A stretch of DNA of 64,000 bases from NCBI GenBank assembly GCA_905178155.1, contig CAJINV010000018.1, forward strand, positions 1,096,609 to 1,160,608, written 5' to 3'. The notes below the pieces were generated by a model. The model did no database searches. It saw nothing but the letters and a program-made list of their open reading frames with translations, and was not told where the DNA came from. This stretch comes from Amoebophrya sp. A120. Taxonomy: Eukaryota; Protista; Dinoflagellata. Both the position numbers and the translations under genes were made by a program. Positions 1-63,560 of the stretch are shown piece by piece. Numbering within the stretch: the stretch's first letter is position 1; every line of letters starts with the position of its first letter.

Positions 1-1786
1 GCCCCCCAACGCCACCGCTGACCGGGGTATCCTGAGTAAAAACGTACCCACACCAGAGTCAGGATGGGGATTTTGCAACACAAACCTAGGAGTTTTGTGA
101 GTCACGCATGACAAGTTGCACTATGCAGTGTAGTGCAGGTTAGCAAGTGCAGCCGCATCACAGATTCATCTGCTCATCGTGTTCATAGAGTCACAAATTC
201 CAAAACACGACTGGAAATGGCCCTCATGGGGATGCGCATTACAAGTCTTCCTGTCTTTGCAAATCTGCATCACAGCTCTGGCGTGGGTACGTTTTTACTC
301 AGGATACGGGGAGAGGGAAACTTCCGAAGTGCTGTTGGCGGTGTCGCCGTATGAAAGTGCACAACTTCTCCACGTTCTGATTTCTCATGCAAAATACCAA
401 CTCCACGCTCATGCAAAATACCAACTCCACGCTTCCCCTCCTATCACTATTATGCATGACAAGTTCATCTGGCAGCCCAAATAGAAGTACAATCTGTCAT
501 GCAAAACCTGCATATTAATTCCTGCTAACGATTGCATTGCTGCTCCTGCAATACAAATGAGGGGGGACGAGGTTGTGCACTGTGATACGTCGCTCGGATT
601 GTTTACTAGCCGGTTCGATGTCGAGGTACCTCCGCCCCGCGAACTTGGCGACGAGGGAACATGGATGTCCAGCGAAAGCCGTTTCCGCCCGTTGCTCGTC
701 GTGGCGGGCGCAGAGAGGTTGAGGTTCGATTTTTTCCTTGGGCTCGAGCTACTGGCCGCGGCGGCGGAGTTGCCCGTCAAAGTCGTAGCATTGTTGTACG
801 CGGACGCAGCTCCTTGTGCTGGTCCACCGTCATCGTGGACCACCTGCAGCGGATCTACCCGCCCGTTTATCGCAGTTCCTCCTGGTCCTCCTGCACTCAT
901 GTCTTCGTCGGACGAATTGGAGGAAGACATGCCAGGAATGAACGCGTCACTCTGTTGTTGTAGCTTCTGGCGCGGTATCCTGTGCAAAGGTATCGCACTC
1001 GTAGTAATCGCAGTCATGCATTACAAATCTCCTTCCCAAGGCAAATCAGCATGACAAATTCCATTTGTAATGCTGAGCGAATTTGTATTGCAATTACTAC
1101 TAGTACGATACTTTTGCAGTGCATATGCGGTTGTTCCGCTTCATCCGGACGACCCTCTTGGTCCTGCTGCTGCAACATGATTTTCGCGGCAGGAACAAAT
1201 CGAGAATTTTTATCTCCACCTGCTCGGTCCGTTGTTTTATTGAGATTGGCGAAATTATTTCTCGTCGTCGTTGTGCTACCACAATTTGACGCAGGAGCAG
1301 GAGCGCACGTAGTTGTTCTTGTTCTATTCCCTCGTCCCTCGCCCTCTAAGATTTTTAACGGCTGGTCTACTTCTAGCGAGGACGTCGAAGTGGGCGACAC
1401 TACAGTATCCTTTTGATAACGTATCAAGAGGAAAAATCCCCCCTCCCCATATCGGAAACGGAAGATGCGCGAATTTGTGATGCTGTATTTGAGTACACAA
1501 ATCGACTTGTATTGCTAGAAGGCCAAGAGACGAAGCTGCGGCCTAAATTGCAGGTAATCTGTCATGCTGTTTCCCACTTCCAGTTGCCTCCTGTCATCCT
1601 GGAACTGCAAGGCTTTCCCACACTGGACAGCACTACAGTCCGCATCTTTTGCCTTCTAGCATCACAAAGCTGATTTGTGACCACAAATCTGCATCACAGA
1701 TTTCCGTTTTGATATGGGGAGGGGGCATTTTTCATTGTAATATAACGCTGGCTCCGGGGCGAAGTCAGCAAGCAGCACGCGCACAT
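1..1786 (-). CDS. Multi-exon gene, low-complexity Ser/Thr-rich protein of unknown function; runs off the window 3' end, start uncertain (may extend to ~2890)
   Basis: Removing introners 1422-1742, 976-1125, 350-587 and 28-306, each with one DR copy, joins ORFs 1014..1427 and 409..1017 in frame (SQR|YQKD, EQP|RQKL, NPSD|DTANS, LSP|VSGG). Confidence 0.6.
28..306. mobile_element. Introner, family C
   Basis: TIR tatcctgagtaaaaacgtaccca / tgggtacgtttttactcaggata; DR cgggg. Confidence 0.9.
350..587. mobile_element. Introner, family F
   Basis: TIR tatgaaagtgcacaac / gttgtgcactgtgata; DR cgccg/cgtcg. Confidence 0.85.
976..1125. mobile_element. Introner, family D (150 bp)
   Basis: TIR tatcctgtgcaaaggtatcg / cgatacttttgcagtgcata; DR cgcgg/tgcgg. 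Confidence 0.88.
1422..1742. mobile_element. Introner, family B
   Basis: TIR with gaaaaatcccccctccccatatc / gatatggggagggggcattttt; DR taacg. Confidence 0.9.
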
Positions 1787-1904
1787 TGATATCAAATGCA
1801 AAAATGTCTGGGTCTGGAAGATTCTAAACTTGTCATGCTGTCTTTGGATTCCAAAAACATCTGTATTGCGTGACCAACAACAGGAGTCCAGTTTGTGTTA
1901 CGCG

Positions 1905-4529: not shown

Positions 4530-7500
4530 TTAGGCCTCCGACGAATTTCCCGACGACAGAGAAACGACCCCACTCGACGTCCCCACCGCTGTCTCATCTG
4601 CACTACTGGAGCTACAACCCCCTTCTTGTTCCTCCGCACAGGAAGTAGTGGCGTTGGTCATTAAGTTCTGCCCGATTCTCCCGTTTTTGTTCGCCATTGC
4701 GATTGAATACGGCGTCACTTGGTCGCGGTACTTCACGTCTAGCAGCTGGGTGAACCACACGCCAAAGTTCCCGATGTTGGGATCCAGAAAATTCACGGGA
4801 GCTTGCCGAATTTTTGCGTCTTCTTCCTAAAGTGTTTTGTATTTGAATACTTGCGTTCGTGTTTTTCGCTTCGTCCGTTCATCATCTTGCCCTCGGTTGA
4901 AAACGATCAACCGCAAAGGATTTTTTTTCCGCACCATGATTCACACGTGCTGGTGTGAACAAATAATATTTTCCAGATTCAGTGAGACCGCGTCCACGTG
5001 TGCATGCATGCAATAAAAGAAAAAATCATCATACATTCCATGTAAAAAATTATACCTCTTCCAAGTAGGTGGCTCGTGCAAAAATCGCCTTCTTCGTTTC
5101 TTCATCGTTTTCCGGTTGCAATAAATCCTCGTCATCTTCGGACGCTTCGGCCTCCTCTCCGAAATTCCTCGCGTCACTCAATGCCGTTAATTCCTCAATT
5201 CTCTTCGAGTGCAGCTCATCCGCCAAGGGGTTCACTTTCACCGGTCCCTATGACAGTGCACAACTCTCCATCCCCCTCATTTGTCATGCAAAATACCCAA
5301 TCCACGACTCCTTGCATCTTGGCACTGTTTGCATGACAAGCTCTGGTAGCCCAAATAGTACTACATTCCAGTGAGAATTTGTCATGCAAAACCGGCACTC
5401 TTGCTGATGCTTGTACTGCCGTTCATGCAATACAAATGAGGTGGAAGGGGAGTTGTGCACTCTGATAGTCCCTCCAGATTATCGATGATCTGGATCTTGT
5501 CGCGCCGCACCGCGAAGCCCTGGCTTTTCATATCAAATGTAAAAGTGTCTGGGTCTGGAAGAATGCAGCTTGTGATGCTGCATTTGGATTCCAAAAAAAT
5601 CTGTATTGCATGAGTACCAAAGGGAATGCAATTTGTGCTACGCTGAGAAGGCATTTGTCATGCGGAATAGGCATCAAGAAGCCCTCAAGAAATCTGTATT
5701 GCTAGGGTATGCATCACAGACATCATGGCTCATGCAAAACGTGCATGACAAGTGTCAGAATCTTCCAGACCCAGACATTTTTACATTTGATATTTCACTA
5801 TGCATGGCAAATATGCTGTCTGGGTTTGGAAGCTTCGGATGCTCATGCTTGTAATGCTGGTGTTGCATATACATATTGATTACCACTGAAATCTCCTGTC
5901 GTGCTGTGCATGACCAATAGAAGTCGCAGCCTCATCTGCTCTCGTCGTACAGAAATGCAAGCTCTCATGCGAGCTGCGTATCATGAGAAAGCGCTGGCGT
6001 TCTGCAAAATTGTATACTCTTGACTTCATTCGGTGGAAGTGTAATTTTCATCTTCATCGTCCACAGTTCTTCAGCATCACAAGTGGTTTCCAGACGTCTA
6101 CGACAGTAGATATTTGCATTTAATATTGACGCTGAAACTGTTGTTTTCTTCCTCCTCATCCTGGTCCTCTTCGAGGGTTTCTGCACTGCATTCCCTGTTG
6201 GAGTTGTTGTTTTTGGTTTCCTCCTCTGCCACTGGGTGGAAGAACGCAAATTCTTCTCGCTGTTGCTCCTCGCACAAATTCGTAATCTTCTTCGTCCCTG
6301 CTGCGTCCTCCTGACTATGGTCCTCTCCTGACGGAAACAAATCCCCCTGCGGTTCCTCGTCCTCGTCGTCCGCAAATTCGAGCAGCCCGCTGGGTAGATT
6401 GTGAATAGCAGACATAAGAAACATGTCGTTTCGTTTCTGCTGCTCGAATTCGTCCAGAATTCGGCTGCTATTACTGTACCTTTCGTCCTCGACCACTTCT
6501 TCTTTTCCACCATCGACACCGTCCACATTTTCACCGACCACACTAAAAGGATTTACTATGTTTGTTGATGTTGAGCTGCTGCTGTTAAAAACCTCTTCGA
6601 AGTAGAACCCGTCTTCCAGCAAATTTACGCGGGTCGCGGTCAAAGAGTCCGTTATCAAATGTAAAAGTGTCTGGGTCTGGAAGAATGCAAGATTTGTCAT
6701 GCATATTTCTCATGACCCATAATGCCTGTAATGCTTGAACTAGCATCGCAGACCTTTAGAGGGCTTCCTGATGCACCTTCCGCATGAGAAATGGCCTGTC
6801 TGTGTAGCAAAAACTGTACCCATTTTGCTGGTCATGCAATACAATTTTTTTTAGAGTCCAAAAACAGCGTGACAAGTTGCAATCTTCCAGAGCCAGACCC
6901 AGACATTTTTGCATTTCATATCCGTGGCGTTGCTCCCGTTCCCGATCACGGTACCCGTCAACGTCTGCGTTAGCGCGTCCGAGTTGGAGTAGGACAGCGG
7001 GGGGGCGGTGGTTTCCTTAGAAGAAGAAAGACTGTCGGAAATGTTGTTGGTCGTGTGCAACTTCTGTGGATTGGCTTTGCTGTTGTTGACCTCAGTCGAG
7101 GTTGTACAAGAACTACTACCTTTTAGATTATTGTCCTCCTGCTCTTTCAGCAACTCCACGACGTCCGCGAGGCTGCAGGTATCCTCCTCCTCCTCTTCCT
7201 CCTCGCCGTTCGGCGCAATGATCGACGCGGACAAACTCCCTGCCTGTTGCGCGTTCTTCTCTAATTGAAAGTACTCGCTTCCCTCTTTCGTGACAATCAC
7301 GTCGTTGGCGGGGATGATGATGGCCTTTTGCTGCAGCTCTGGTCCTGGTGCCGCTCGATTTTCGATCACTGATGACACCACGTGGTCACCCAACGCAACT
7401 TCCGGCCCAATCACTGTGGGCCGCGGCGCCAATGTCCCAGCGCGGCGGCGGGAGCTGCTGGTGGTCGTGGTATTCTTTCTAGAGGTGGGAGATGAAGTTG

Positions 7501-8532: not shown

Positions 8533-10624
8533 TTACATCAGCGTTCTATCTTCTGGTGTCCGTAAAAAAACTGTAATACACAGATAGTTAGAGTGCCACC
8601 TTTTTACTAAGAGCTAACTCGCTTGCTTTTGCACATGCAGTCCCTCTTCAATAATTTAGGTGAGTGTGGTGCACATCAAGTTCACACACCCACGTTGTTT
8701 CCAATGAAAAAACATCAAACTAGAAGTTCTTCCGCGGTTTTGATTGAACTTGCTAAGGTCTACCGATTCCGTACCACGTTTGCAAGAAGAAGAAGAAGAA
8801 GAAGGACCCTCATCCTCTCGGCGGACCAAAAGGAATAAATTTGCAAAACAAGTACCATGATGAAGCAGAAGCTTCTTTGATTTTGAGCTCAAGAACGTTA
8901 ACGTGATTGATTACCCGACCCTGACGGAGACCGACTACGTTTTCATCTCTGCTAGATTTGTACGTTAAACAAGACACTGAGAACGAGACAACCGAAAGCG
9001 AACCCCGTTAACTTCTACCTACTTTTACGATCCCCGCTTTGCGATCTTCCCCCCTCCCCCACCTTCTCTATCGGTGTAGCATGAAAAAGGTGTTGAAAAT
9101 CTCACTGACAAAACTCAAAAGGAACAAAAACAGACAAGTCACGACGAATGTTCTTTACTGACATTCATCAAGAACGAACAGGCTGTAAGTAAGTGGATGT
9201 GGAACAATCTTCAAACCGGCATGAGAAACTACAAGTCGCTTCCTAAGCTCCTGCAGCGTGGTGAAGCAGCCACCAGAGTGTGATTTTTATTGTGCATGTG
9301 GATGCGCAAGCGCCGCAAATAAAGGAAACTCAAAGTCATTTCGAAACAGTCCTGGTAGCATTCTTGTCCAGGTTGCGCGAAATTTAAGTTCGTCCAGGAG
9401 AACAGGTTCGTTGACTCCTAAATCCCTCTCGCCACACCTCTTTCTGATTAACAATGTAGTCGGGCAGGATATGCTTGGTTCTGTGAGGCGAGCTACTTGC
9501 TTCTATGCGGCAGTTCTTCTCACACCGGCTACCTATTTATGCACATGCGCAGGATATGCGGTCCTAGAGAAAAATCTTACTCTACAGTGGGTAAAATAGA
9601 GCAGGCTATGCATCTTATTTCCATCTTCAAAAGCTGCAGTTCATACTGAAGAGAGTGGACTTTTTGCATGGGTACGTAGTTGTCGGTGGCACCAAAAGGA
9701 AAATAAGAATTAAGAATGCTGCAAGGGTTCTGCGGGTCATAGAAAGTAAAGCGGGGTAGTTGTACGAGCGCAAATCCGAAAACGACTGGTCTCACCCATG
9801 GTGTATGGTGTAACGTAGATGCCCCCGCAGGTGCGACGTAAGTGTCTACCTACAGGCGCGCAGCATCAAATCCAAACTACAGGCGAGCACCGTCTTCGCG
9901 GAAATAAAGGTTTGTTGTTTATTTTTCGTTTGCTGGTACCTTCGAATTAGGAAAATTCAAAACAAAACTAAGAAAAATGCGACAGGTGGTTGCTGCTAAA
10001 GCACGATACTTTAGAACGGGAGCTCCTTCAAAGTCATATTCATATTTGTGATAAAAATAAAATCAAACGGAATAAAGAACAGAGACGTCGCCGCACCAAC
10101 CTAGACCAAGAAAGACCTAACCGGGCTACTAGACCCAGCCAAATCCTTCCGTCAACGGCTGTCCCGACAGTGCTTGGCAACAGTGGTGGACACTAAACGT
10201 TGCTGCGCTGCCCCAAATGGAACCCAGAACCACCAAAAGTTGCTGTGCTGCCAGTTTTTGCTTTCTGCATGCTGGTACTGCGCTTTCACTGTGAAATTGT
10301 AGTGCAACATTTTTTATCATACTGAGTTGCATTTTTGTGATTGTGTTTTTTGTTTTTATTTTTTTGCGTTTTTGTTTTTCGGAGCCGATATATATGTGTA
10401 AAAATGGGTTGTTGTAGCAACTACGGGTCAATGAACAACAAGAAGAAGAAAGTAAAACTGAAGCGCAAATAATATGAGGAGGACAACGTACCCAAGAGGC
10501 AACTCACCCATGGGGGATCAAAAAAAAAGTTTCAATTAGTGCCGGACTGGCCGGCAAAATACCTATATAAAATAGTTAATTGCAATAGCTAGGTGATTAA
10601 GTAGTTAGATAAGACGTTTTTTAG

Positions 10625-11444: not shown

Positions 11445-11683
11445 TTTGAAAGCGTCTACTTTACATAGCTAATTCACATAAGGCAAGCTAGTGTATTTTA
11501 ACTAGCGAAATTACTTATGTTCAATTCGTTTACTGTGAAAAAAAAAAAAATTATCCCCTTGGGTGCGTTGCCTGTTGGGCACGTTGTCCTCCTCATAAAT
11601 AATAACTCGAAAGAAAAGATGAAGGCGAACGCTCTCCTGTCTTCGACAGTCCACGTACTTCGTCTTCGTGCAGCAACTCCCAA

Positions 11684-40107: not shown

Positions 40108-40614
40108 CTTAGAACTACTCGCGGACGTCGTGGTTGGGCAATTTCTTGTCCTCCAGAAGAACTATGTCGCACTTTTTACAACCACACAGTCGTTCTTTGT
40201 CCAAATCAATGATATTTTTGGGGTCCAACTAGTACAAGAAGCGAGTGTAGTAATGAGGCCCTGAAGTCCATCCGCAGGTTGAGAAGACCACGATCAGAGA
40301 CGAGAGCAAGACCGGACTCGTTTTCAACAAAATTTTGTGTGTTAAAAACGCGGCAAAAACTACTTTTTTTCTTATTTCGCGCAACACATTTTCAAAAAAT
40401 CAATGCGCGACCTCATCTAAATGTGACGCTAAACACGAAACATCCAATTGTGCATTTTTTAGACGCAGTCTCGTCAAATTTGAATGGCGAAGATGGGAAC
40501 ACCTTTTGACGGCAAACGGCAATTGGAAGCAGGCGAAGGCGAACCTGATTCCTCAAATTCATAAAAATCTTCCATCTAAAGAAGTGACAGAACTTCCGAA
40601 GCAACACTCTACTA

Positions 40615-50029: not shown

Positions 50030-53000
50030 TCACTTCGTAAACGCTCCCATCTGGTTGTAAAGTTGCTGTAACACCAAATTTTGCTGCTGCAGCACATTTT
50101 GATAGAGGGCCTGCTGCACCTGCTGTGCACTTTGCTGCGTAGAAGAAGTTGTCGTGGCACTGTTCTGGTTCTTCCCGCCTGCGCCTCCTGCCGCCATCGG
50201 CGGTGGAGGCCCCCAGGAAGAAGAATTATTGTTGCTTCTGCCTAAGCCCTTGTTCGGATTGCCAAGCGGAATGTCATTCGAGCCCGTCGCGGAGTCGTGC
50301 ACGCGACCCTTTGCAGAAGTCGTTGTTCCCTTTTTGTTTTTACCAGAAGTGGTGGCACTATTACCGAACAAACCGCCGTTTCCTTTGGATGAGTTGTTAT
50401 TTTTAGTTCCTGTGCTGCTCTTGCCACCACCGGCACCACCGAATTTGCCTCCACCGCCCCCAAGCGGTATGTCGTTGGAGCCCGTTGCCGACTGGTGGAC
50501 GTTGCCTTTGCCTTTACTCGACGACTATCCTGTGTAAAAACATCCCCACCCCAGAGTTGTCATGCTAAACAAAATGCGACACACTTTGCCCCCCCAGAGT
50601 TGTCATGCAGATCTGCAAGCACAAGAGCATTTGTAATGCGCATCCCCATGATAGGCATTTCCGACCGTGTTTTGGAACTTGTAATGCTGTAAACAGGATA
50701 AGCAACTGGATTTGTAATGCGACTTCCGTTGCTATACTGCACTACTACACTACAGCCCGCAATTTGTCATGCGTGACTCCCAAAACTTCAAGGTTTGTGT
50801 TGCAAAATCCCCATCTTGACTCTGGGGTGGGGACGTTTTTCCTTCGGATAACGACGTCCCTTTGTTCATCTTTCCACCCGCAAAGGTGGAATTGTTCCCT
50901 TTGTCATTTCCCTTTTTCACACCGCCGCCTTTGCTGTCTTTCCCGCCATTTTTAGTATTTTTGCTACTCTTATTTCCTCCGCCACCAACCACCATGGAAC
51001 TTGTCCCATACGGACCGGACCGAGCATTTTTACCTGCTGGTGCACTGCCTTTACTATTCTTCGCCCCCTTCCCACCGAAGGAAGCCCCGGAACTTCCTCC
51101 TTTGAAGTTGGAAGACTTGTTATGGAAGCGTCAGGATTGAAATCGTCAAAGTTGAAATAATTTGTGATGCATAAAATGCAACCCACAAAGCGCCTGTCTT
51201 GCAGAGTAGGCAAGGGAGGCATATTGCAAGCCTGTTGAGGGGTAGAAATGGAGCTGCTAAAGTAGCATGACAAAAGGCGTCTTCCTTACCCAAACAGCAT
51301 CACAAACTGGATTTAGGCACCACCAAAACTTGTCATGCGCCAATTGCTAACTGGGCTCCAACTGGCATCCATTTTATGCATGACAAACTATTTCAACTCT
51401 GACGGTTTCAAACCTGACACATCCATACTTGTTGTTATTTCCGTAGAACCCACCTCCGCTTGATGAACTGTTGTTATTCATCCAGCCGCCACCCCCGCCC
51501 CCGTATCGAAAGAAAAAAGTTCGTCACGATCACTCATGCGCATTTTTGCAATACAAAATTTTCTGTCATGCGTAACAATGCATCACAGCCAAACTTTACA
51601 AGGGATTTCCCTAGTGTTTCTGCAATACAAGGAAAAGCTGTGATGCTAAATGAATTTGTAATGCAAAGCCTGCAAGTTAGTGACTGTGACAAACTTTTTT
51701 CTCTCCATACCCCGTCTTTCGGCGCGAGTATGTGCCGCACGTTGTCCAGGTTCCCTTCCAATCTGCGAAACTTGTCTTTGAAAACTTTGATGTTTTCCGT
51801 CACGACAGTGTCCTTCGAATTCACTCCGTCCGAGATCTGGTTGCACTGCTTTTCCATGTACGCACGGATCTTCGGGTCCACCAACTCCGGCACGGACCTC
51901 TGCACAATGTCCAGCACCGCCAGGCCCAAACCGGTAGGGACGAGGTGGCGAGACTTCGGCCACTCTCCAGACTTCAGTTTGCCTTTGTTCATGCCCTTGG
52001 TCTGATGATCATGATTTGCGAGAATTTGTCATGCGAAGCAGCTTGATGGCCTGGCGGCTCATAGTCAATTTGCATGACAAATCAAGTATTAAAAATTGTC
52101 GGTCTCTTTTCAACTGCTTTTTCATGTCCCACAACGACACGCTGGCGCTAGGTGCAACTACTGCAACTGCAAGAGATAATGTGATAGATAATTGTATGAA
52201 GTAAGTACTTCACTCAAAGCATTAGATAACTGCACCGAATCAACGAGAAGATCATGAAACAACCTGAAAAATAAAGTACCATGACTCTCGGCCCCGCTTC
52301 CTTGCTCCCTTTTTCACCCGGGCCGCAAACGCTGACGTAGTTCCGCACACATATGTTTTCGATATGCCCTGCCATACTTGCGTCGGTCCCAATCCCGTTC
52401 TTATCCATCAAGCCGACCAACTCCGATTCTGACAGAAACTGCGGGGGCTCGGTGAAGGTTTCCGTGCTGGTTAGCCGGAGGTTCGAGAATCGGGTGTTTT
52501 TCGCCAAGTAGTGGCTTTTCAGCAGCTGGCAGTTGTTGTTCGTCAGTGTGTGGTTGCTGAGCACTTTCAAAAACTTCCCCTTGTGCTCGCACAGGTGGAG
52601 GAAGGAATTCTGCCACGCGGGAGAGCTGGAGTTGCTATTGCCGTTGGATGAATAATTGTTGTACGACGACGAGCCACCTCCTGGTGCTCCACGATTGTTG
52701 TAGGAAGATGCGCCCCGATTCGTAGTTGATGTGTAGTGGTCCCGAGCCCGACCTCCAGTTGGGACCAAATAGTGAAAGACCGCTTCGAAAGTATTCTCGC
52801 TGTCCGTGCTGGTGTTTTTACCGCTGTTGTTATTTGATCCATACCGACCGCCTCCGCCCGCTTCATCCAACCTTGCCTTAGCGGTAAATTCCACGTACTC
52901 GATGTCGTTAAACAGCGACGCGATGTATCCTGTGCAAAAGTATCGTACTCGTATCAATGCAAGGCTTGCATTACAAATCTTTTTCTTAACGTAAATCCGC

Positions 53001-56000
53001 ATGACAAATTTCATCTCTCATGCTGAGGAAATTTGTAATGCATTTATACGAGTACGATACTTTTGCAGTTCATACGATAAAATGCTTGGCCACTAGCTCG
53101 AACATTTTCCACGCCTTCGGCTTCAAGTTCTCACCCCGGCCCGGTATCCGCATCGGCGTGATGGTATGAACTGCAAAAGTACCGTACTAGTATAGGTTGC
53201 AATACAAAGTTGATCATCATTACAAATTGAATTTGTAATGCGGGTTTGCCTAAAGACAAAGATTTGCAATGCATCAAGAGTTGCATTTATACGAGTACGA
53301 TACTTTTGCACAGGATAGATGGGCGGGTGGTCCCCCCGGTCAAACCCGTCCTGCGGGGGGCGAATTATCGTATTTAAACACGTCCCCACCCCATAGTTGT
53401 GATGCAAATCTGCATGCTGAAAATGTTTCTCATGCGGAGCCCCATGAGGGGCATCTTTTAGTCGTGTTTTGAAATTTGTCATGCTCCAATCAGCATGATA
53501 TACTGGATCTATAATGCTGCTGAGCTACCTCAAACAAGCACTACACTACGAGTTCAAATTTGTCATGCAAAACAGCCAAAGCTTGTGGATTTGTCTAGCC
53601 GATTTCCCATCTTGACTATGGTGTGGGGACGTTTTTACACAGGATACGAATGCGCGCGTTGCTTCCACTCTGCTGGTTCAGCAAGGCTTGCACGGAATGC
53701 CGCAGCTTGTTGTCGTGCTGGAACATCTATCCTGTGCAAAAGTATCGTACTCGTAGTAATTACTGCAATCATGCATTACAAATCTGGTTCCCAAGGCAAA
53801 TCAGCATGGCAAATTCCATTTGTCATGCTGAGCGAATTTGTATTGCAATTACTACTAGTAGGCTACTTTTGCAGTGCATAACATCCGGGCTATCTCGTCC
53901 ACGTTGTAGCTGCTCGCGTACTATCAAATGTAAAAATGTCTGGGTCTGGAAGAGTCCATGTTTGTCATGCGTGTCTGGCATGACTCTCAAATCTGTCATG
54001 CACTCTTCCCAAGAGCGCCATATTTCTGTCATGCAGAAACGCAGCTTGTCATGCAGAATAGGCAACACCTAGATAGAAGCTCAGAAGCTTGTCATGCTGA
54101 GCCAGCACTTGCGGCCTCCTCGTAATACGCCACCCAGCATCACAAGTTTCCAGACCCAGACATTTTTGCATTTGATACGTACTTCGTGGATTCTGTCCGG
54201 GGGTAGGATATCAGTCCAGCGGAATACAGTTCTTCCGCCGTTCGCATGGCGGACGCGGGGGAGAACCCGAGGAAGGAGGCTTGCTTCAGCAATTCGACCG
54301 TATTCAACCCCGCTGGTTTCCGGATCTTCTTCGTTTCGTAGTCCAGGGAAAGGAGGGTCGCGGTTGTGCTGTTGTTCCGGCTGTTATTCTGCAGATAGGT
54401 CGCACTGGTCTTCGCTTTCGACTTGCACTTGAACTCGATCGCTTTGTCCGTTATACTTTGCTGGTAAGAAGAACTACCGCTGCTGTTGTTGTATCGAGAA
54501 GAATTACCTGCTCCGCCCCGGTGACCACTGTGATGGCCGGCGCTTGAAGTAGAAGACCCTCCGCCGCCCAGCTGTGGGGTAAACGTCCGCTCCTGCCACT
54601 TTTCCGGGACGAACCGCTGGATTTCCTTGTGCCGCTCGATACAGAACCACAGCGTTGGGGTTTGGCAGGGTCCGTAGCTCAGGCAAGTGTTGTCGATCCA
54701 GGAGAACTTCTGTTTCGCGTGGTTTAGAAAGTTCCAGGTGAGAAGCTTGGTGTGTCCTGAGGAAAAAAGGGGCCCACGACACCCCAGAGCTGTCACGCAA
54801 CTGAAGATTTTTGCAACTACAAAAAAATTTGTACTCACATGCGCATTCCCATGGATGAGAGACCTTCTTACTCGTGTTGTAAGTCAACTTTAGAATGCGG
54901 TAAACAGGATGAGGAGCCGGCTTTGTACGTAATTCGGACGTGCTTCTGCTTGCTGACCTGCACTACAATACAGCGCGAAACTTGTCATGCGTGACTCCCA
55001 AACCTTCTGGATTTGTGTTGCAGACTTCCCAACTTGATGACTATGGGGAGGTCTGTGGGCCCCGTTTTTCCTCAGGTTATCGTGAACGCTATCCCCACTC
55101 GGAAATCCAACAGCTGCCGTGCGTCCACGGACATGGACAGAAACTTGTTCGGGCGCTTCAGGTTCGCCATCGCCTGCTGCAGCTCCGGTTTGGTTAGGGC
55201 CGAAAAGTGTGCGCGGTAGATGTGCTCGTCCGTCGCCTCAAACCGCGGATTAATCTCACTTCCAGGACCCTGCTGACCCGGGGTGGCGCTGCTTCGCAAC
55301 AAGGAAATCACTTCGAAACAAATGTTTTCTCCCTCCTTATCGCAATCCAACCACAAAACCAAGTAGTCGGCCTCCCTCCCCAAATCGCGCAGGTGCTCCG
55401 GGATGCGGCACTTCGTCGCGGACGGCTCTAGCTCCTTCACGGTGGTTGTGTCAAAGCAATCGTACGGATTCCTGGGTGATCAAATGCAAACATGTCTGGG
55501 TCTGGAAGGTTGCAACTTGTGATGCTGCCGTTGGATTCTACACCGAATCTCTATTGCGTGACCAGCAAAAGAAACCCATTTTTTGCTACACGGAAGAGCG
55601 AGCATCTCTCATGCAGTCCAGGCATCACAAAGCCCTCAACAAATCTGTGATGCTAGGGCATGCATCACAGACGTTATGGGTCATGCAAAATATGCATGAC
55701 AAGCGCTGCTTTTTTCCAGACCCAGACATATTTGCGGTTCATATAGGTTTGTTCTGAAATCCCAGCGTGAAACAGTGTCCGATGGTGGACGTGATCAGAA
55801 ACTTGAACTATCAAGAAGAAAAATCCCACCTCCCCATATCAAAACGTCAATCTGTGATGCGGGATTTGTGTACACAAATCACATTTGTCTTGCAGGAAAG
55901 CACTGCACGCAGATCGCCAGGCTTCGGGGGGCTTTTGGTGTAGGGGCCTAGTCGATGGCAGAACTCTGCCCTATAGGCCTTGCAGCATTACAAACCGCCT

Positions 56001-59000
56001 GCATATCGCGGCGGACTCTCTGGATTTGCCTTCTGGCAAGACAGACAGGATTTGTGGTCACAAATCTGCATCACAAATTTTCGGAAGGACATCTTCTCAA
56101 TATGGGGAGGGGGGATTTTTGCTTTTGATATGCACTGCTTGTTTGCCTCTTTGAAAAAACCGTTGAACTTATCCCACAGAAAAAAGCAGGCAGGTCATAT
56201 TTGTAATGCAAAAATAAATACACAAAAAAATACGCATTGCATATCCTAAACAGCATGCTATGGGGCTGCCCATGACAGAGCTTTTTGTGTATCAATTTTT
56301 GCAATACAAATATGCCGTGCCTGCTTTTTTCTGTAGGATAGAACTCAAAAGTCGGCACGCCCTTCGACAGCGTGCCGCGCTTCTGCCACGGGCCGTTGGC
56401 GGACGGGCGGTAGCTCGGGTTTAAGTGCTCCGCAAGAATCTATTGGTAAATTAGAGTACTACGCATGGGTAGAAACCGATTCGTAGTTGTTTCTAAAAAT
56501 AGAACTACTTGATGCAGATGCAAGTATCGTATTTCTCAACACAAAGAACGAAAGGACCAGGAGATGAAAATGTACGTAAAATACTGATGTGCGCCGTCAA
56601 GTTGTCAAAAGCATTCTCAGGAGCAAGGTATACGCAAGTATACCTTTGCGATCGAGGGTTTTTCTGCGACCATGAGCACGGTTGGTTTCTTGTTCGGGTC
56701 CAAGCTCCGGACCGCTTGTGCCTTTTCCTCCTTCTCCTTCTTTTCTTCGTGCCACCGACTCAAATAGAAGTAGTGCGCGAGGTAGTTCCCCCTACGGTAA
56801 AGCTGTTCCGCCGCTCGCGCATCGTAGTTAACGTGCATGGCGCAGTCGCTACTAATCAGCGTGTCCTGCTCGAGCGTGGCGTCGAACTTCGGCGGGTCTT
56901 TCGTATTACAATGAAAAACGCCCCCACCCCCGAACTTGGGAGCATTTGCATTGCAAACCTTTCCAAATGAAACATTCGCCCTCTTGCATCTATCAGCATC
57001 ACAGGTTTCCAATCGTTAATAGCAAAAATTTCTATTGCAAAAGACCCCAGCAAGAGCGGCCCTTTTCATCATGCAAGCGATGCGATACACGCCTACACTC
57101 TGCATCAGAAAGATTCCTACTCCTTTCTTGCATGACGAAAAGTTTTCATGGGGGAACTTCGCATCACAAATTTTTGAAATTTCAGGGGTGGGGGGCACTT
57201 TTCACTGCAATATTTCGCGTTGTGGCTTTCGTCGGTGGAGAACGTGTCCAGTAATTCCCCCATCAGGGTAAACCCCTCGAAAATCTTGCCCAGGGATTTC
57301 CCCTTCGCGCCCGTCGCTGGGTTGTATTCGACACACTTATCTAGCATGTCCGGCGTGGCAAAGTGCGGCCCGCAGAAGAAGTTCTGCAGCACTTGGGGAA
57401 AGGTTCTGCTCACCGGGTGGTTCTGGAGCTTTTCCCAGACGTCCTGCCCATTTCTGATCCGCCGATGGTTACTGTAGTTGTGGCTCTCAAAGTTTCCGTT
57501 ACTCGCCCGGTAGTTGTGGAAAATCTTCGGCTTGATGTTGCTGTTGGTGACCACTTTGTTCAAGGATGAAGACCCCGCGTGGCTCCTTTCAACTACAGGC
57601 GCCGCACTGCTCAGAGGCCGGAGAGAGAACGAGGACCCTCGCGCAGCACCAGCACCTACCGACGCTGCTGCATTATCTCCATGTGTCGCCTTGTTCGCAA
57701 AAGTGGAAGCTGCTCCTGGGACGATTAGGGGAGCTATCGCTTTTGCAACGGGTGGTCGAAGACCAAGCTCGGCGCTTCCGGAGGTCGCTGCTCGTTGAGA
57801 GATAATTCTACTTGTACTTCCAGTCGGCGCGGCGGGAGGGTGATGCTCTTGTTCAACAAATGCAGCACGATCATCGTGTTGCTCCTGGCCTTCTTGCGCT
57901 GCTACATCTTCATCCTCGTAATTCTCGATCTCGTCGTAATTTTCCTCCTCGTCGTTCATCATGTACCGGTCTTCACCCAGGAAGTTCTGCCTGTTATATT
58001 CGTCATCTGAGTCCTCGTCTTGCTCCTGCCCGGGGTCGTCCCCGCCGACGTAATTCTCGCCGTCTTGCTGTTGATCCGCGTCCTCCTCCTCGTCTTCCGG
58101 CCCAACCCCAACGTCAAAAGGGTCATCCGGCATGTCGCGTACTTGATTCTCCTCGTAGTTCATTTCATCCTCGTTGTACTTTCCGTTGTCGTAATTGCCC
58201 TCTGGGTCGTGGTCATTCCAATCCGCACCATCGGCATCACCATGCCCCTCGTAATTGTCGTCTACCTCTGCAGTAGCATTCGATGCTGGTGCAGGTGCAC
58301 CAGCGCCCTTTGTTCCAAGATGATTTTTACCGATGTCTTCACCACCTCTTGTCGTCGTGGCCCTCGCCTCGGCTGCGTTAGTACGTGGTGCTATCGCAGG
58401 CCGTGAAGGGCCACTGCTGCTACTGCTCGCCATCTGTGACGACGTTGTCTGCTGCTGCGCGGTCAGCAAGGGACTCGCGCCGGAGGCCTTCGAAAAAGCG
58501 CCCGCTTTAGAAAACACGCCAGCGCCAGCTTTGGGAAGAGATGATGTACTACAACTTCCGGTAGTAGTGGTTGGCACACCTCCTGCCGTTGGTCCTCGCG
58601 GAGGTAAAGGTCTCAAGCCACTCGGCTTCAAATCGGCGGGCGAGGATCTTGATGGTCCTGTTCCTGGAGAGGAATTGGCAGCATGATTCTGTTGACCATC
58701 AAGCTCCGACATCTTTTTCCCAAAAGACCCAAGCGCTGTAACCGCCGCTGGTGGTGGTGCACCACCAGCCGATTTGCTGTTGGTTTCACGACCTCCTTGG
58801 ATCTCCGACAATTTTTTCCCACCTGAAAGTGGCTTGAGGACCACCGAATTTGTACTAGTAGCCGCACCAGGTCGTGTAGTTTGTTGAAACGCCGAAGGAA
58901 TGCTCCCAGCACCTCCGTTTAGTTTCGCCACGGGAATGATGGGCGCCGGCGGGGGGCTATCCAAGACAAAAAGATTGTAGGTGTAACTTTTTTGGAGGAA

Positions 59001-59661
59001 CAGCATGACAAATCTGTCTGGCATGAGAGCAAAAACCTGTCATGCGCAGATGGTACGTGAAAACGAGCTTGAGTGGACCTTTTAATGCATGCCCAGCATG
59101 ACAGCCGCAAGCACTTTGCATGTGGCGCATCACAAAGTTTAGACTAGCAATGTTTTTTTCTTCGATAGGGGCCCTCGGCCCAGGAATCCTTCGCCGCATC
59201 GCTGGACGAGGAATGCGACTTTATTTTCGAAACTCCGCTCTTCTGTTGTATCAAATGCAAATATGTCTGGGTCTGGAAGAGTCGGGGTTTGTCATGCACA
59301 CTTTGCATGACCCATGAGGTCAGTGATGCAGGTCCTAGCATCACAGATTTTTTGAGAGCTTCTTGATGCTTGTCACGCATGAGAAATGCCCTCACCGCGT
59401 GCCAAGAACTGAACGGTATTCTTGCTGCTCATGCAACACAGATATTTTTAGAATCCGCAGACAGCATTACAAGTTCCGGTCTCAGACATTTTTGCAGTGA
59501 ATATGTTGCTCGAGTTGCTGAAGCCTCTGTGCCGAGGGCGGTAAGGGCGTCAGCCGCGGCCGCTTCGCGTCGGGCTCGTAGGAACAGTTCGTGTAGTTGT
59601 TGTTTCCTCCATTAGACGCCTGCGGCGGCGAGGGACGCCGAAACTGGTCGAGCCGCTTCAT
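50030..59661 (-). CDS. TOP3B: DNA/RNA topoisomerase III beta (type IA) with a long N-terminal extension and a Gly/Lys-rich tail
   Basis: VLMVAEKPSIAK, TSTIGH, YLVLWLDCDKEGENICFEV, LSYGPCQTPTL, LISYPRTE (catalytic Tyr), DHPPIYP, LMDKNGIGTDAS, LVPTGLG; 15 introners and GT-AG introns 56440-56643 and 52002-52279. Confidence 0.92.
50526..50850. mobile_element. Introner, family C
   Basis: Family C TIR; DR acgac; internal duplication of ccccagagttgtcatgc. Confidence 0.88.
51121..51427. mobile_element. Introner, family G (307 bp)
   Basis: Closely similar to 16547-16853; DR cttgt. Confidence 0.9.
51504..51709. mobile_element. Introner, family J
   Basis: TIR tatcgaaagaaaaaagttcgtcac / gtgacaaacttttttctctccata; DR ccccg. 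Confidence 0.85.
52002..52279 (-). other. Canonical GT-AG intron containing an introner-type motif pair
   Basis: gtcatg|gtactt ... catcag|accaag; internal atttgtcatgc...gcatgacaaat. Confidence 0.7.
52926..53074. mobile_element. Introner, family D
   Basis: Family D TIR; DR cgatg/cgata. Confidence 0.88.
53165..53317. mobile_element. Introner, family D (ends swapped relative to 52926)
   Basis: tatgaactgcaaaagta / tacttttgcacaggata; DR gatgg. Confidence 0.88.
53366..53646. mobile_element. Introner, family C (inverse of 26611)
   Basis: Family C TIR; DR cgaat. Confidence 0.9.
53728..53880. mobile_element. Introner, family D
   Basis: Closely similar to 976-1125; DR acatc. Confidence 0.9.
53922..54177. 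mobile_element. Introner, family A
   Basis: Family A TIR; DR cgtac. Confidence 0.9.
54753..55079. mobile_element. Introner, family C variant
   Basis: cctgaggaaaaaaggggcccac / gtgggccccgtttttcctcagg; DR tggtg/tcgtg; AFT|KLLTW restored. Confidence 0.82.
55478..55743. mobile_element. Introner, family A
   Basis: Family A TIR (left end GAT); DR tgggt/taggt. Confidence 0.82.
55809..56130. mobile_element. Introner, family B
   Basis: Family B TIR; DR tgaac/tgcac. Confidence 0.88.
56170..56340. mobile_element. Introner, family E
   Basis: Family E TIR; DR gaact. Confidence 0.9.
56440..56643 (-). other. Canonical GT-AG intron
   Basis: gcaaag|gtatac ... caatag|attctt; KPSIAK|ILAEHL. Confidence 0.8.
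56904..57212. mobile_element. Introner, family K
   Basis: TIR tattacaatgaaaaacgcccccacccc / ggggtggggggcacttttcactgcaata; DR tttcg. Confidence 0.88.
58958..59167. mobile_element. Introner, family L
   Basis: tatccaagacaaaaagattg / caatgtttttttcttcgata; DR ggggc. Confidence 0.8.
59249..59503. mobile_element. Introner, family A
   Basis: Family A TIR; DR tgttg; related to 19176 and 32439. Confidence 0.85.
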
Positions 59662-60480
59662 TGTTGAGCAATAAATTGTAGTTGTCGCTGAGAGGATACA
59701 AGAAGGCAGTAGAAGAGGACTGGCAGTAGAGGTTATAGGAGTAATAGAATGGCCGGCGGACCCGGACGTACAAAAAACCAAAGTAAAAAGCCTACAGCCG
59801 GGAATAAATGCAGCTGTGATAGAAAATCTTAATGGGCACCACAATTGCTCTCACTATTGTACAGAATAGATCACTTCACTTCACTTCACTTTCTAAGGCC
59901 TCTGTGGGACTATCCAAGACCCGGTCTATTGCTAAATTTTTATCAAACGCATTCTGGTTGACTAAAACTTGACTGCCAACCTTGTTTCAAGATGGCACTG
60001 GACCTGGAGGCACAGGCACATTCTGACACAATAAAGATAAACTTTCCATCTTTACAAGCATTTCGTGCTGCCTACGCAAGCGTAGCGCCACGATTGAAAA
60101 AACTGAAAAATTGATCAAATCCGGGAAAATTGCGTGGATCGGAACTCCATTGCTGGAAGACAAGGCACAGCACAACGAGTGAAAAAACAGCGCGAAAAGA
60201 AGCCACAAAACAGCAAGAAGATCGTGCTACCAGTTACTTACCCACGTCGGGGGAGTAGAACACAGGTTTCTCGGGCGCTGAAGTAGCGACTTGAAATCGA
60301 CTGAAATTCACTTGCGATGTGTCGCTAGGCAGATGCAATATTCAAACTTCTTGCGTCTACTTGATGTCTATCGGAAGATTATGAGAAGTGCGCTGCCGGA
60401 AGAACTACATGTGTGAGCGACGACATATCCCATGAACAATAACGATCTATACACCACAAGCACCAGACCTGTACTTGCGG

Positions 60481-63400
60481 TCACGGCACGAGCAGAAAAT
60501 CTGCGCCGAAGAGCTTCGCTATGCAAGAGAAGAACTGTGTTAGTGTAACTTTCGTTGGCTGACAGCATCACAAATTTCCTCTACATGACAGAGAAAATCT
60601 GTCATGCGTGGCTTGCAAGGGAAAACACACATGAAAAGAGGACTCCATGGTTGTTTCGCATGACAGGTGTAACTCGTGCTGCATGTTCCGCATTTTTGCA
60701 GAGTTACACTTACACAGTTTTTTTCTTGCATATCCGCGGCGCAGCGGTCGTTATTGGCTTGGGAGGAAAACCCGTGAACCATGTTCGCGACCTCGTTCAG
60801 CCTGTTTAGCAATGACTCGAAGAATTCCGTGAACTCCGCGTATTTGCTATCGTAAGGAAAAATCCCTCCTCCTCATATCGAAAAGGCGCGCTTTTCAAAA
60901 TTTGCGATGCTGATTTGTGGCCACAGATCGAGTCGGTCTTGCAACCGAGCAAAGCCAGAGCTTCCGTCGCATTTCGCAGGCGATTTGTAATGCTGCTGCG
61001 CTAATGGGGCAGACATCTGCCATGCTAAGTAACTACCTAAGCCACCCCTTTCCGGGCTTTGTATCTGCCTGCAGTGCTGTACTGCAAGACAAATCTGATT
61101 TGTGTACGCAAATACAGCATCACAGACTTCCCTTTCGATATGGGGAGGGGGGATTTTTCCTTTTGATATTTGTCAAAGTCTTCCAACGGATCGGGCTCTG
61201 CGACGAAGTAGTAGGGCCCTTTAGATTTCGGGAAATCTACCCCGTTTATCATAAGGAAAAATCCCCCCTCCCCCTATCGAAACGGCACGCCTCGGAAAAT
61301 TTGTAATGCGGATTTGTGACTACAAATCGCGTCTGTCTTGCAAGAAGGCAACTCCACAGGTTCCACCGCATTATGCCGGCGGTCTGTGATGCTGGTGAGC
61401 CTAGAGCATAGACGTTTCTCATGCTAAACGCCTACGCCAACCCTTCTACTCAGGCGCGACATGGGCTCGCAGTCCTTCACTGCAAGACACAGCTGATTTG
61501 TGTACGCAAATCCAGCACCAGAAACTTCGTTTCGATATGAGGAAGGGGGATTTGATTTTTTCTTCTGATACCATTTGAGTGGATGCTCTCCTCCTCCACC
61601 CGCCGATATCCTAAGCCGAACAAAACTTTTCTCGCCGGCAGACAGTTGCCAAAGTCGTTCTGGAAGTCTTTGTTGTCCAAGCGTAGCACGTTCGGGTGCT
61701 CCTCGGGCCTCTTCGCCAGTGCTTCCGTCAACTTCCGCAGCGCCGGTAGGCGGTCTTGCTTGAAGCTCTGCAGACTGTTGGACCGCAACAGTTCCGAAAA
61801 ACTCTCGTTCAGCAGCTGGCGGCTGCTGGTCCCCTTGGACCGCTGCTTGTCCGCATCCGCGAGCAAAACCCAATTTTGCTCTCGCTCCATCATCTGCGCT
61901 TTGTCGTACAGCGCGGCTTCTTCGGCGAGCCGGAGGAGTTCGTTCGCCTTGTCCCGCTTTTCCTTCTCCTCCGCCAGTTCCTTCTCTCGTTTATCCCACA
62001 GAAAAAAGCAGGCAGGTCATCTTTGTAATGCGAAAATGAATACACGAAAAATCTGTATTGCGAAGCCTAAACAGCATGCTATGGCGCCGCCCATGACAGT
62101 GCTTACTGCGTATTTATTTTTGCATTGCAAATATGTCCTGCCTGCTTTTTTCTGTGGAATATCGTCTCTGCAGTTCCAACGCCTGCTGCCGTTCCGTGGC
62201 CGTCTGGATTTCCGCGCGCGCCCGTTTGTTTTCCTCCTCCTCGGCCAATTTTTGCCGTTTCTGCCTCTGCTGCTCCCGCTCCCTCTGCTTGGCGACTTCC
62301 GGATCTTGTTCGGACTCGAGGATGTACGTCCGCAGCTCTTGCCGCAACAGGTGCAGAGCTTTTTCTGCTTGTTCTTCATCCCCATTTACTATTCGTGTAC
62401 TGCTCGCCCCGGCGCCGGCGATTTTGATGTTGCCCTCGCTAGAAGTACTGTGGTCCCGCCCGACCTCCATAGGCATTATATCTCCACCGTCTCTGATCTC
62501 CTCCACGCACAGCAGCGTCTCGATTTTCCCTTTTAATATTTCCCAATCCGCGCACAGTGCGAGCACCTTCTCGCTCATCGCGGTGCCGTAGGTGGCGTGG
62601 GAAAGGAGCCGCTCGTACGTCTGGTAGTCTGCATCGGTGATATTAGAACTTGTCGCCTTTTTAGTACCCGTTGTGTTGTTCTGCTGCGACTCGCTTCTTG
62701 TAGCTTCCCGCACCTCCTCCGGCTCATGTTGATCAGTGGGCGCAGGATGGTTTTTCGCCCTCTGCTGTTCTTCTTTGTCCTGTTGCTGCTTCTCGAAGGC
62801 CTCTTCAAACTTGCTTTCCTTCTCGAAACCGTACTTCGACAGCAGTCTATCTACGTATCCCCAGCAAAAACGTTACCACCCCCGAGTTGTCATGCAAATG
62901 CCGAATGACAGGAACATATGTAATGCGCCTCTGCATGACAGGCATTTCCAATCGTGTTTTGGCATTTGTAATGCTGTAAATAGGATGAGAAAGTGGCTGT
63001 CTCATGCGGCTGCGCTTGCTAACCAGAACTACACTGCAGATGGAAACGTGTCATGCACAACTCCCTTAACTTTGAGATGTGTGTTGCAGATTTACTAACT
63101 TGACTATGGGGTGGGGATATTTTTGCACGGGATACTACGTCCTGCCGTGCGTGGGCCTTTTCCCGCATTGCGCGGAAGTCCGTTTCGTGAAAAAGCTATC
63201 AAATGCAAAGATGTCTGGGTCTGGAAACTTGTGATGCAAGACAGTCAATAACAAATGCACTGTAATGCGCCGCCAAGCATGACAGTTTTTTCGTGCTTCT
63301 GTGCTGCGTCTTCCGGATGAGAAACTGTGTTTTTGCATGACAGGCGAGAGAGGCTGTTTGTGGCCACGCAATACAGATTTAAGGGCCATGCCAGATCAGC

Positions 63401-63560
63401 ATGACAAGTTTCGCAATCTTCCAGACCCAGACATTTTTGCAATTCATAAAAGCAACCGCAGTTGCTGCTTCTGCTCCTCTATTGCTTGGAGCGTCAGGTC
63501 TCGCTGCTGCCATGCGTCCACCGCGGACCGGGCCTTTTTATAAATGGAGGAGGAGGCCAT
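60481..63560 (-). CDS. Coiled-coil protein with a probable C-terminal PUB-like domain
   Basis: Continuous frame from MASSSIYKK after removing 6 introners; LRKLTEALAKRPEEHPNVLRLDNKDF...VLFGLGY...EPDPLEDFDKY resembles PUB. Confidence 0.7.
60520..60732. mobile_element. Introner, family L
   Basis: TIR tatgcaagagaagaactgtgttagtgtaact / agttacacttacacagtttttttcttgcata; DR ttcgc/tccgc. Confidence 0.85.
60848..61168. mobile_element. Introner, family B
   Basis: Family B TIR; DR tttgc/tttgt. Confidence 0.88.
61247..61570. mobile_element. Introner, family B
   Basis: Family B TIR; DR ccgtt/ccatt. Confidence 0.88.
61992..62161. mobile_element. Introner, family E
   Basis: Family E TIR; DR tcgtt/tcgtc. 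Confidence 0.88.
62856..63134. mobile_element. Introner, family C
   Basis: Family C-like TIR; DR ctacg. Confidence 0.85.
63197..63448. mobile_element. Introner, family A
   Basis: Family A TIR; DR aaagc. Confidence 0.9.

Follow-up and report, generated by a model that had tools for sequence, protein, structure and literature searches.

Transposon-like introns in a 64-kb stretch of the Amoebophrya sp. A120 genome, their cut register and a conserved base at intron position +2

Elements and genes in the window

The stretch analysed here (the window) comprises 64,000 nucleotides of the dinoflagellate Amoebophrya sp. A120 (contig CAJINV010000018.1), in which Pfam recognises genes for a type IA topoisomerase, Rad17, a papain-family protease and a dynein light chain, and in which 65 elements with terminal inverted repeats (TIRs) occupy 18.5 kb. 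These elements are the introners already described for A120 (Farhat et al. 2021, PMC7789003), as the original prediction, made from the sequence alone, had proposed; the class is known because the window belongs to the very genome in which it was described, the spliced dynein light chain model being equal to the A120 record P0002 and a topoisomerase exon being 100% identical to the A120 record P0004. What is added to the published class is a precise cut rule and one base that is specific to the sense strand.

According to that account (PMC7789003), A120 introners have inverted repeats that start with TAT and carry a later A run, direct repeats of 3-5 nt, a length of about 240 nt and a family structure. 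Non-canonical introns are given there as more than 60% of A120 introns and as occurring together with GT-AG introns in single genes, and their removal mechanism is left open.

A strict scan requiring a 5-bp direct repeat, an inverted match of 15/25 or more and identical first 3 nt returned 44 matches, 38 of them starting with TAT, while three dinucleotide shuffles gave 1, 7 and 2 matches with TAT starts in none. A terminus-library scan with inspection brought the number to 62, in agreement with the roughly 62 originally claimed, and three decayed elements (31275-31604, 31651-32039 and 49069-49243) came from RNA joints and gene models. The ends are TAT...ATA in 57/65 elements, with a non-TAT end in the other 8/65, and A occupies end positions 11-13 in more than 90% of element ends. 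The 5-bp direct repeat is perfect in 41/65 and at least 4/5 in 59/65; the statement that nearly all elements combine TAT/ATA with a 5-bp repeat needs correction for the 8/65 non-TAT ends and for the repeat, which is imperfect in 24/65 and nearly lost in three. The repeats cgggg, taacg, gtccc, tttca and ctgga are present as previously named. Element lengths are 143-459 nt, with two exceptions of 1038 and 1125 nt. The reported lack of GT-AG signals was borne out, since sliding the borders reaches GT/GC-AG in 0/65 elements (in a pooled set 23/420, about chance) and no cryptic GT-AG use was seen. A generic inverted-repeat scan of the window without anchors gave only noise, an Rfam search no match, and viral contigs two short matches.

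Reading through is possible, in any frame, for only 3/65 elements. Removal of each element plus 5 nt yields frames of 2723, 1142, 1053 and 700 codons over 8, 4, 7 and 9 elements, respectively; the frame test alone cannot separate +5 nt from +2 or +8 nt, which the RNA joints can. The frame is also restored at the motifs singled out earlier: the annotated A120 protein contains AFTKLL, the cathepsin frame after element removal contains SCWAF, and P0002 contains YFYIG. All called element-bearing genes of the window lie on the minus strand (46/46 confident calls), and contigs outside it are likewise one-stranded, as reported for Amoebophrya. The features are as follows, with the evidence closing each line.

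28-306, minus: TIR element, perfect repeat CGGGG; strict scan, 290-codon frame over 5 elements
350-587, minus: TIR element, repeat 4/5; terminus-library scan
976-1125, minus: TIR element, repeat 4/5; terminus-library scan
1422-1742, minus: TIR element, perfect repeat TAACG; strict scan
1790-2827, minus: TIR element, 1038 nt, nested insert flanked by 16-bp duplication; strict scan
5249-5467, minus: TIR element, perfect repeat GTCCC; strict scan
5531-5792, minus: TIR element, perfect repeat TTTCA; strict scan
6653-6920, minus: TIR element, perfect repeat TCCGT; strict scan, 517-codon frame
10473-11597, no strand assigned: long TIR element, 1125 nt, distinct family, perfect repeat AATAA; strict scan
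16242-16503, minus: TIR element, perfect repeat; strict scan, 2723-codon frame
16547-16853, minus: TIR element, perfect repeat CTGGA; strict scan, 2723-codon frame
19176-19452, minus: TIR element, repeat 4/5; terminus-library scan, frame test
19515-19756, minus: TIR element, perfect repeat; strict scan, frame test
19829-20148, minus: TIR element, perfect repeat; strict scan, frame test
22054-22311, minus: TIR element, perfect repeat, reverse complement (92%) of 30980-31237; strict scan, frame test
22355-22563, minus: TIR element, perfect repeat; strict scan, frame test
22970-23290, minus: TIR element, perfect repeat; strict scan, frame test
26611-26894, minus: TIR element, perfect repeat; strict scan, frame test
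27146-27427, minus: TIR element, repeat 4/5; terminus-library scan, frame test
30752-30901, minus: canonical GT-AG intron, protease transcript; RNA joint
30980-31237, minus: TIR intron, papain-family protease gene; RNA joint, skip 263
31275-31604, minus: decayed TIR intron, repeat lost (1/5), cut unambiguous at -1/+4; RNA joint 31270-31606, skip 335
31651-32039, minus: outer TIR intron, repeat 3/5, second element in 5' arm; RNA joint, skip 394
31862-32031, minus: nested TIR element, perfect repeat CATTG; strict scan, removed within outer joint
32095-32299 (205 nt) and 33550-33726, minus: further canonical GT-AG introns, protease transcript; RNA joints
32439-32717, minus: TIR intron, perfect repeat; RNA joint, skip 284
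32787-33054, minus: TIR intron, 5' arm TAA; RNA joint, skip 273
33114-33429, minus: TIR intron at SCW/AF motif; RNA joint, skip 321
33783-34080, minus: TIR intron, 5' arm TAC, repeat 4/5; RNA joint, skip 303
34132-34381, minus: TIR intron, perfect repeat; RNA joint, skip 255
35365-35633, minus: TIR intron, repeat 4/5; RNA joint, skip 274
35717-35988, minus: TIR intron, 3' arm ACA, repeat 3/5; RNA joint, skip 277
36119-36313, minus: canonical GT-AG intron, gene next to protease; RNA joint
36460-36712, minus: TIR intron, perfect repeat; RNA joint, skip 258
37756-38016, minus: TIR intron, 5' arm TAA; contig piece arithmetic
38072-38330, minus: TIR intron, 5' arm TAC, repeat 4/5; contig piece arithmetic
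38867-39131, minus: TIR intron, repeat 4/5; contig piece arithmetic
39200-39524, minus: TIR intron, perfect repeat; contig piece arithmetic
41282-41436, minus: TIR element, 3-nt bulge in one arm; inspection, RNA pieces end at left repeat, frame test
41494-41804, minus: TIR element, repeat 4/5; terminus-library scan, frame test
43082-43403, minus: TIR intron, perfect repeat; adjacent pieces of one RNA-type contig
45775-46033, minus: TIR element, Rad17-like gene, repeat 3/5; terminus-library scan, frame test, Pfam
46102-46353, minus: TIR element, repeat 4/5; terminus-library scan, frame test
46400-46542, minus: TIR intron, perfect repeat; loose end of RNA-type contig reads across
47940-48398, minus: TIR element, 3' untranslated region of dynein light chain gene, repeat 2/5; RNA piece end 1 nt into left repeat (one side)
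48450-48702, minus: TIR intron at YFY/IG of dynein light chain; strict scan, spliced model equals P0002
49069-49243, minus: decayed TIR intron, repeat lost, weak hairpin; only a -1/+4 cut yields conserved Trp
50526-50850, minus: TIR intron, topoisomerase III gene; contig arithmetic, 2838/2838 nt
51121-51427, minus: TIR intron; 2838-nt contig arithmetic
51504-51709, minus: TIR intron; 2838-nt contig arithmetic
52926-53074, minus: TIR intron, repeat 4/5; 2838-nt contig arithmetic
53165-53317, minus: TIR intron; 2838-nt contig arithmetic
53366-53646, minus: TIR intron; 2838-nt contig arithmetic
53728-53880, minus: TIR intron; 2838-nt contig arithmetic
53922-54177, minus: TIR intron, orientation opposite to 30980-31237; 2838-nt contig arithmetic
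54753-55079, minus: TIR element at AFT/KLL, 5' arm TAA, 3' arm ACA; annotated A120 protein
55478-55743, minus: TIR element, 3' arm ATC, repeat 4/5; terminus-library scan, protein comparison
55809-56130, minus: TIR element, repeat 4/5; cut limited by a Cys of the A120 and A25 proteins
56170-56340, minus: TIR element, perfect repeat; strict scan, frame test, protein comparison
56904-57212, minus: TIR element, perfect repeat; strict scan, frame test, protein comparison
58958-59167, minus: TIR element, perfect repeat; strict scan, frame test
59249-59503, minus: TIR element, perfect repeat; strict scan, frame test
60520-60732, minus: TIR element, repeat 4/5; terminus-library scan
60848-61168, minus: TIR element, repeat 4/5; terminus-library scan, frame test
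61247-61570, minus: TIR element, repeat 4/5; RNA piece start at 61571 (one side)
61992-62161, minus: TIR intron, repeat 4/5; adjacent pieces of one RNA-type contig, skip 175
62856-63134, minus: TIR element, perfect repeat; strict scan, frame test, RNA piece ends at left repeat
63197-63448, minus: TIR element, perfect repeat; strict scan, frame test

Removal from RNA and the position of the cut

The RNA evidence consists of contigs of runs X3-X6, all of one sample, which are presumed to be RNA and whose contigs end in poly(T) and skip GT-AG introns; the comparison covered the 48/65 elements from window position 26501 on. At 27/48 elements the element plus 5 nt is absent from these contigs (15 directly bridged, 12 by piece arithmetic), and among the 21/48 not fully bridged in the matches listed, four have one side and one rests on an annotated protein. 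Eleven of the joints listed (15 of 25) skip the element plus exactly 5 nt, the other four being GT-AG introns, and none of the matches listed contradicts removal at this length. The originally proposed loss of the element together with one repeat length, beside GT-AG introns of the same transcript, is therefore seen in RNA-type contigs: the protease transcript, spanning 30125-34935, has 3 canonical and 8 element joints listed, and a 2838-nt contig is matched to the base once 8 elements and one inferred GT-AG intron are removed. Contigs of run X1 extend from exons into elements and are for this reason read as genomic; genomic contigs retain the elements. Of the raw RNA runs, X9 and X10 gave matches to element ends only (85 and 1 reads) and seem to come from another strain.

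A perfect repeat hides the position of the cut, so only mismatched repeats are informative. Thirteen junctions were of this kind (10 RNA joints or piece ends, one piece start and two proteins, those at 47940 and 61247 having one joint side each among the matches listed), and a single position is compatible with 13/13: in gene sense, the 5' cut precedes TAT by 1 nt, the 3' cut follows ATA by 4 nt, and the intron reads N + TAT...ATA + NNNN. With 0 to 5 plus-strand bases of the left repeat kept, the compatible junctions number 8, 13, 8, 5, 5 and 2 of 13, respectively, and the chance of a one-register fit is about 2e-4 after allowing any of the 6 positions. Two junctions without a repeat each fix the register alone, namely the 31270-31606 joint, which shares zero letters and recurs in 4 runs of the sample, and the protein across 49069-49243, where a Trp common to the A120, A25 and Ameob2 proteins requires the -1/+4 cut; the A120 protein record is itself built from RNA, and the A25 and Ameob2 proteins are independent. 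The register is kept in the weakly folding intron 49069-49243 (7/25 end bases paired) and in arms with 3-nt bulges. Stop-codon cases able to fix the register from DNA alone did not arise among the repeat mismatches. Taken together, the element anatomy and the -1/+4 register are in our judgement very probably correct.

The legend of Fig. 3 of PMC7789003 describes splice sites whose position varies with respect to the hairpin and a border that is unknown, and that of Fig. S23 places them 1-5 nt from the inverted repeats. In the 19/58 A120 rows available from Dataset S2 of Gozashti et al. 2025 (PMC12130899), fam160 shows -1/+4 offsets and others differ. A remark of Farhat et al. on the commonest repeat position and the fam160 row may already reflect the -1/+4 geometry. 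A general statement of the register was not found in the literature searched, which lacks most subscription papers and whose figures may bear on this.

The conserved base, the predicted hairpin and the transposon origin

A cut 1 nt before and 4 nt after the element makes U the second base of the intron (+2) and A the third (+3), the arrangement also seen in GTA donors. The base at +2 is T in 65/65 window elements; non-TAT 5' arms all keep TA, and non-TAT 3' arms all keep A at -7. GTA starts were seen in 7 canonical introns, and in one set of 6, 5 begin so.

An independent set of 151 loci (603 kb) was taken from one other assembly, with elements up to 98% identical to those of the window and no overlap with its genes. 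It held 476 elements, 368 with a perfect repeat (two shuffled windows gave 0), and an exact 5-mer direct repeat was present in 310/392 outside elements. Strands were called by a codon model, which assigned 46/46 window cases, its own training set, to the minus strand, and were near uniform per contig. After leaving out 98/476 elements without a strand call and 35/378 with a repeat below 4/5, 343 remained; the loci had been fetched with a TAT-starting pattern, which lowers variant counts, but not by strand. At position 1, the first T, there was 1 variant in 5' arms vs 11 in 3' arms (p=0.006), and 0 vs 10 of 266 among elements with their own strand call (p=0.002); accepting repeats of at least 3/5 left the result unchanged (1 vs 12 of 363). 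Position 2 gave 3 vs 4 among the 343, and interior A vs T substitutions were near symmetric (233 vs 203). Six of the 11 position 1 variants in 3' arms are not wobble-compatible. U at +2 is thus, like the U of GU, a nearly fixed base on the sense strand with a nearly free pairing partner, and it is required as a base, besides the hairpin. Restricted to larger families (14 families, 153 copies), position 1 gave 1 vs 4, which is not significant (p=0.37), and in a position-by-position comparison of 5' and 3' arms in these copies nothing survived 60 tests (best p=0.005, position 15). The sole 5' arm among the 343 without T at +2 (L003 1359-1507, weak strand support) would begin with GC, the usual tolerated donor variant.

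G is mildly enriched at intron +1 (116/330, background 0.295, p=0.03), the exon start bases being G116, A86, C72 and T56 (n=330); AG at -2/-1 is not enriched (28/330, p=0.23), and the target sequence is otherwise without bias. Each of the 18 common non-canonical sites listed for A120 and A25 in Farhat Table S4 carries T at +2 (PMC7789003).

Folding predicts paired ends in 58/63 elements vs 1/6 canonical introns (median z -7.2 vs 0.1); a predicted terminal hairpin is expected, since any inverted-repeat transposon would show one. Element orientation is random relative to the gene (75 vs 78), and opposite-orientation copies of one family (30980, 53922) are both removed. The evidence for selection on RNA pairing is mixed. 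Wobble tests for such selection were blank (G-U vs A-C 283 vs 273, and 47 vs 53); in the old intron 31275-31604 the stem is kept (19/25 match) and the repeat is lost (1/5). The earlier suggestion that the TIR hairpin or a bound factor sets the boundaries holds in that the borders are tied to the inverted-repeat ends. A 7-mer, GCAWBAC, occurs 15 times per kb inside elements vs 0.8 per kb outside, in 63/65 elements, in unrelated families and on both strands; from its distribution it is a candidate transposase or splicing-factor site.

The elements fit miniature inverted-repeat or other TIR DNA transposons, having terminal inverted repeats, a target duplication of constant length and no coding capacity; like these they are short and randomly oriented, with a constant 5-bp duplication, and unlike them they double as introns. 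At the protein level, the A25 sequence is continuous across element positions. A transposase acting in trans would insert them with the 5-bp target duplication, and as each end carries TAT on its own strand, either orientation would provide a 5' splice site reading N-U-A and, four bases ahead of the 3' splice site, A-U-A. Because 1 + 4 equals the 5-bp duplication, frame and protein would be restored for any target sequence, and an exonic insertion would be silent. No autonomous element or transposase with the same ends, as the original prediction suggested seeking, was found in a search that took in the window and 603 kb of loci with their 10 long end pairs. An integrase-like A120 family 38, named in Gozashti et al. 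2025 (PMC12130899), is possibly the partner of the elements. The 1.1-kb elements at 10473-11597 and L019 505-1608 have TAT ends, 5-bp repeats and a GC-rich interior; 8 frames tested in all (5 from the former) gave no relevant Pfam match and no transposase, and the two are possible deletion derivatives of a larger element.

Candidate machineries and known intron systems

The best reading, on which we are evenly balanced, is that a modified spliceosome reads the U at +2, helped by the predicted terminal hairpin; that the spliceosome is the catalyst of element removal appears marginally probable. The hairpin would bring the intron ends together, replacing G+1, the branch-point/pyrimidine and the AG signals, and U6, U2 and U5 would carry out the chemistry. 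In support, N-U-A at the intron start resembles the GTA of local canonical donors. U2, U4, U5, U6 and most spliceosomal proteins were found in A120 with U1 snRNA undetected (PMC7789003), and the non-canonical introns of Fritillaria, handled by a modified major spliceosome, offer a precedent (PMC13326754). As background, A25 has a U1-70K homologue (PMC12787238), a Karlodinium strain has GT-AG introns and U1 (PMC12005148), and GT-AG introns are also those of AT5. Several points weigh against this reading. There is no AG and no fixed base at +1, -1 or -2, which rules out the usual +1/-1 and AG contacts; in 58/63 elements the stretch from +2 to about +25 lies within the predicted stem, which a spliceosome would need to unwind. 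The Table S4 sites are aligner placements inside ambiguous repeats and not independent proof. Retention of A at -7 (position 3 variants 4 in 3' vs 10 in 5' arms) is not significant (p=0.18), and A stands there in just 2/6 examined canonical introns not classed as former elements, for which reasons a branch point is not identified. Double changes in both arms number 18 vs 3.7 expected, 16 of them complementary, which fits pairing selection; 8/18 fall at one position polymorphic across families. Moreover, all RNA evidence is contigs from one sample whose RNA label is a guess.

The original prediction took the elements to imply a second, structure-guided pathway; the need for one is not established by these results, and a separate enzyme is no likelier than a modified spliceosome. 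Such a spliceosome-independent route, in which a structure-guided endonuclease or a domesticated transposon-end-binding protein would recognise the terminal stem with its TA and cut with a 1-nt/4-nt overhang and an RNA ligase would join the exons, on the model proposed for euglenid nonconventional introns, is possible, and we hold it tentatively. It would account for fixed offsets from the stem with arbitrary flanking bases, the predicted paired ends, the stem that outlasts the repeat at 31275-31604, the use of both orientations, the complementary double changes and the absence of AG, of +1/-1 constraint and of an identified branch point; the shared 7-mer could be a protein site, and Euglena has a like spacer code and circular products (PMC12501133, PMC11282704). 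However, U+2 is kept while its partner drifts, the sense strand shows no surplus of G-U over A-C, a poorly folding intron and bulged arms keep the register, inverted repeats are expected from transposition alone, and no candidate enzyme was found, no search aimed at one having been made. A second nuclear splicing machine that reads 5'-N|UA ... AUA-N4-3' off the transposon hairpin, co-adapted with the transposon and independent of the Euglena system, is likewise conceivable rather than probable.

Other explanations concern the cut itself or the joints. That it slides within the 5-bp repeat per element or molecule, with -1/+4 as the majority form only, is improbable: the published 1-5 nt distances (PMC7789003) and family-dependent offsets (PMC12130899, 19/58 rows) speak for it, as do somewhat frequent synonymous repeat mismatches (20/38) and the fact that contigs drop minor forms, but 13/13 junctions fit one position, published placements are confounded by perfect repeats, and the synonymous share does not exceed what a fixed register predicts (omega 0-0.2; p=0.25, 0.07). 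Ciliate internal eliminated sequences are the model for excision from DNA at some life stage, with RNA copying the shortened gene. The transposon anatomy and the removal of one repeat length agree with such excision, and 15 of the 876 joints of the genomic run were seen; yet X1 contigs run from exons into elements at 24-32x in the one sample, and the conserved base follows the gene sense strand, not element orientation or contig strand, which makes excision from DNA very improbable. A hairpin with a short direct repeat is also the known signature of reverse-transcriptase template switching, but the 31270-31606 joint lacks any shared letter, only 3/65 elements can be read through in any frame, conserved proteins need removal, and the joined contigs stand at full transcript depth (127-180x), so that an artefact is scarcely credible.

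Compared with the published A120 introners (Farhat 2021), the window elements share the organism, the TAT inverted repeats, an A run near position 11, the direct repeat, repeated families and removal from RNA, and differ in following one register, -1/+4, with a strand-specific U+2, where the published account has variable sites and an unknown border. They resemble canonical U2 introns in the U at +2 (65/65) and lack, at any slide, a GT/GC donor with AG acceptor. The code of euglenid nonconventional introns, given in PMC12501133 as 5'-N3CDG / CH'GN5-6|R, is similar in having no terminal dinucleotides, complementary triplets at fixed cut distances with a longer 3' spacer, a stem (predicted here) that pairs the ends at set distances from the cuts, direct repeats that blur the borders and coexistence with GT-AG introns. 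In contrast, the triplet here is TAT/ATA with spacers of 1 and 4 and no purine rule at the exon start, the lineage is unrelated, the stems are far longer and the families are still near identical. The introns of Fritillaria borealis (Henriet et al. 2019, reviewed in PMC11282704; PMC13326754) likewise have an inverted-repeat origin and target duplications, are non-GT-AG and form the majority class of their genome, whereas AG-AC/AG-AT ends are preferred there and none occur here, and U1 is retained and U2AF duplicated there while U1 snRNA is undetected in A120. Unlike a ciliate internal eliminated sequence, the elements are present in genomic contigs (one sample).

With a fixed register and one required base, borders described as variable follow a rule, which points to where a branch or circle junction should be sought and to the bases worth mutating, and allows re-annotation of tens of thousands of introns. 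The 1 + 4 spacing explains how transposons could flood exons, with one target duplication removed at any target and in either orientation. If the spliceosome is responsible, it works without a fixed base at +1, -1 and -2 and apparently without U1; if it is not the catalyst, an unknown nuclear splicing enzyme exists.

Some further features were noted. At 31651-32039, the inner element is nested 8 nt into the 5' arm of the outer one, and both are gone in RNA-type contigs; the pair is possibly removed in two steps like a twintron. Element 1790-2827 carries an insert of about 760 nt at 1889-2679 with a (TAG)n end and a 16-bp duplication, which resembles a non-LTR (long terminal repeat) retroelement, and removal of the whole element with its nested insert still restores the host frame. 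The GT-AG intron 39759-40637 also fits the element rule (G-TAA ... ATA-CCAG) and is perhaps an old element turned canonical; the GT-AG intron 52002-52279 holds two copies of the element 7-mer and is perhaps an element relic. Two elements of one open frame lie upstream of the apparent start of the annotated A120 topoisomerase III (P0004, 1453 aa) in that frame, and the 5' end of this gene (window 56617-59850) may be under-annotated. In addition, an 841-nt insertion unit at 24591-25496, with a 65-bp exact direct repeat at its borders and no inverted ends, splits a long gene; its removal joins a 3154-codon frame (27572 to 14458) with no Pfam match, and the unit may be a recent retro-insertion, a haplotype collapse or another odd intron.

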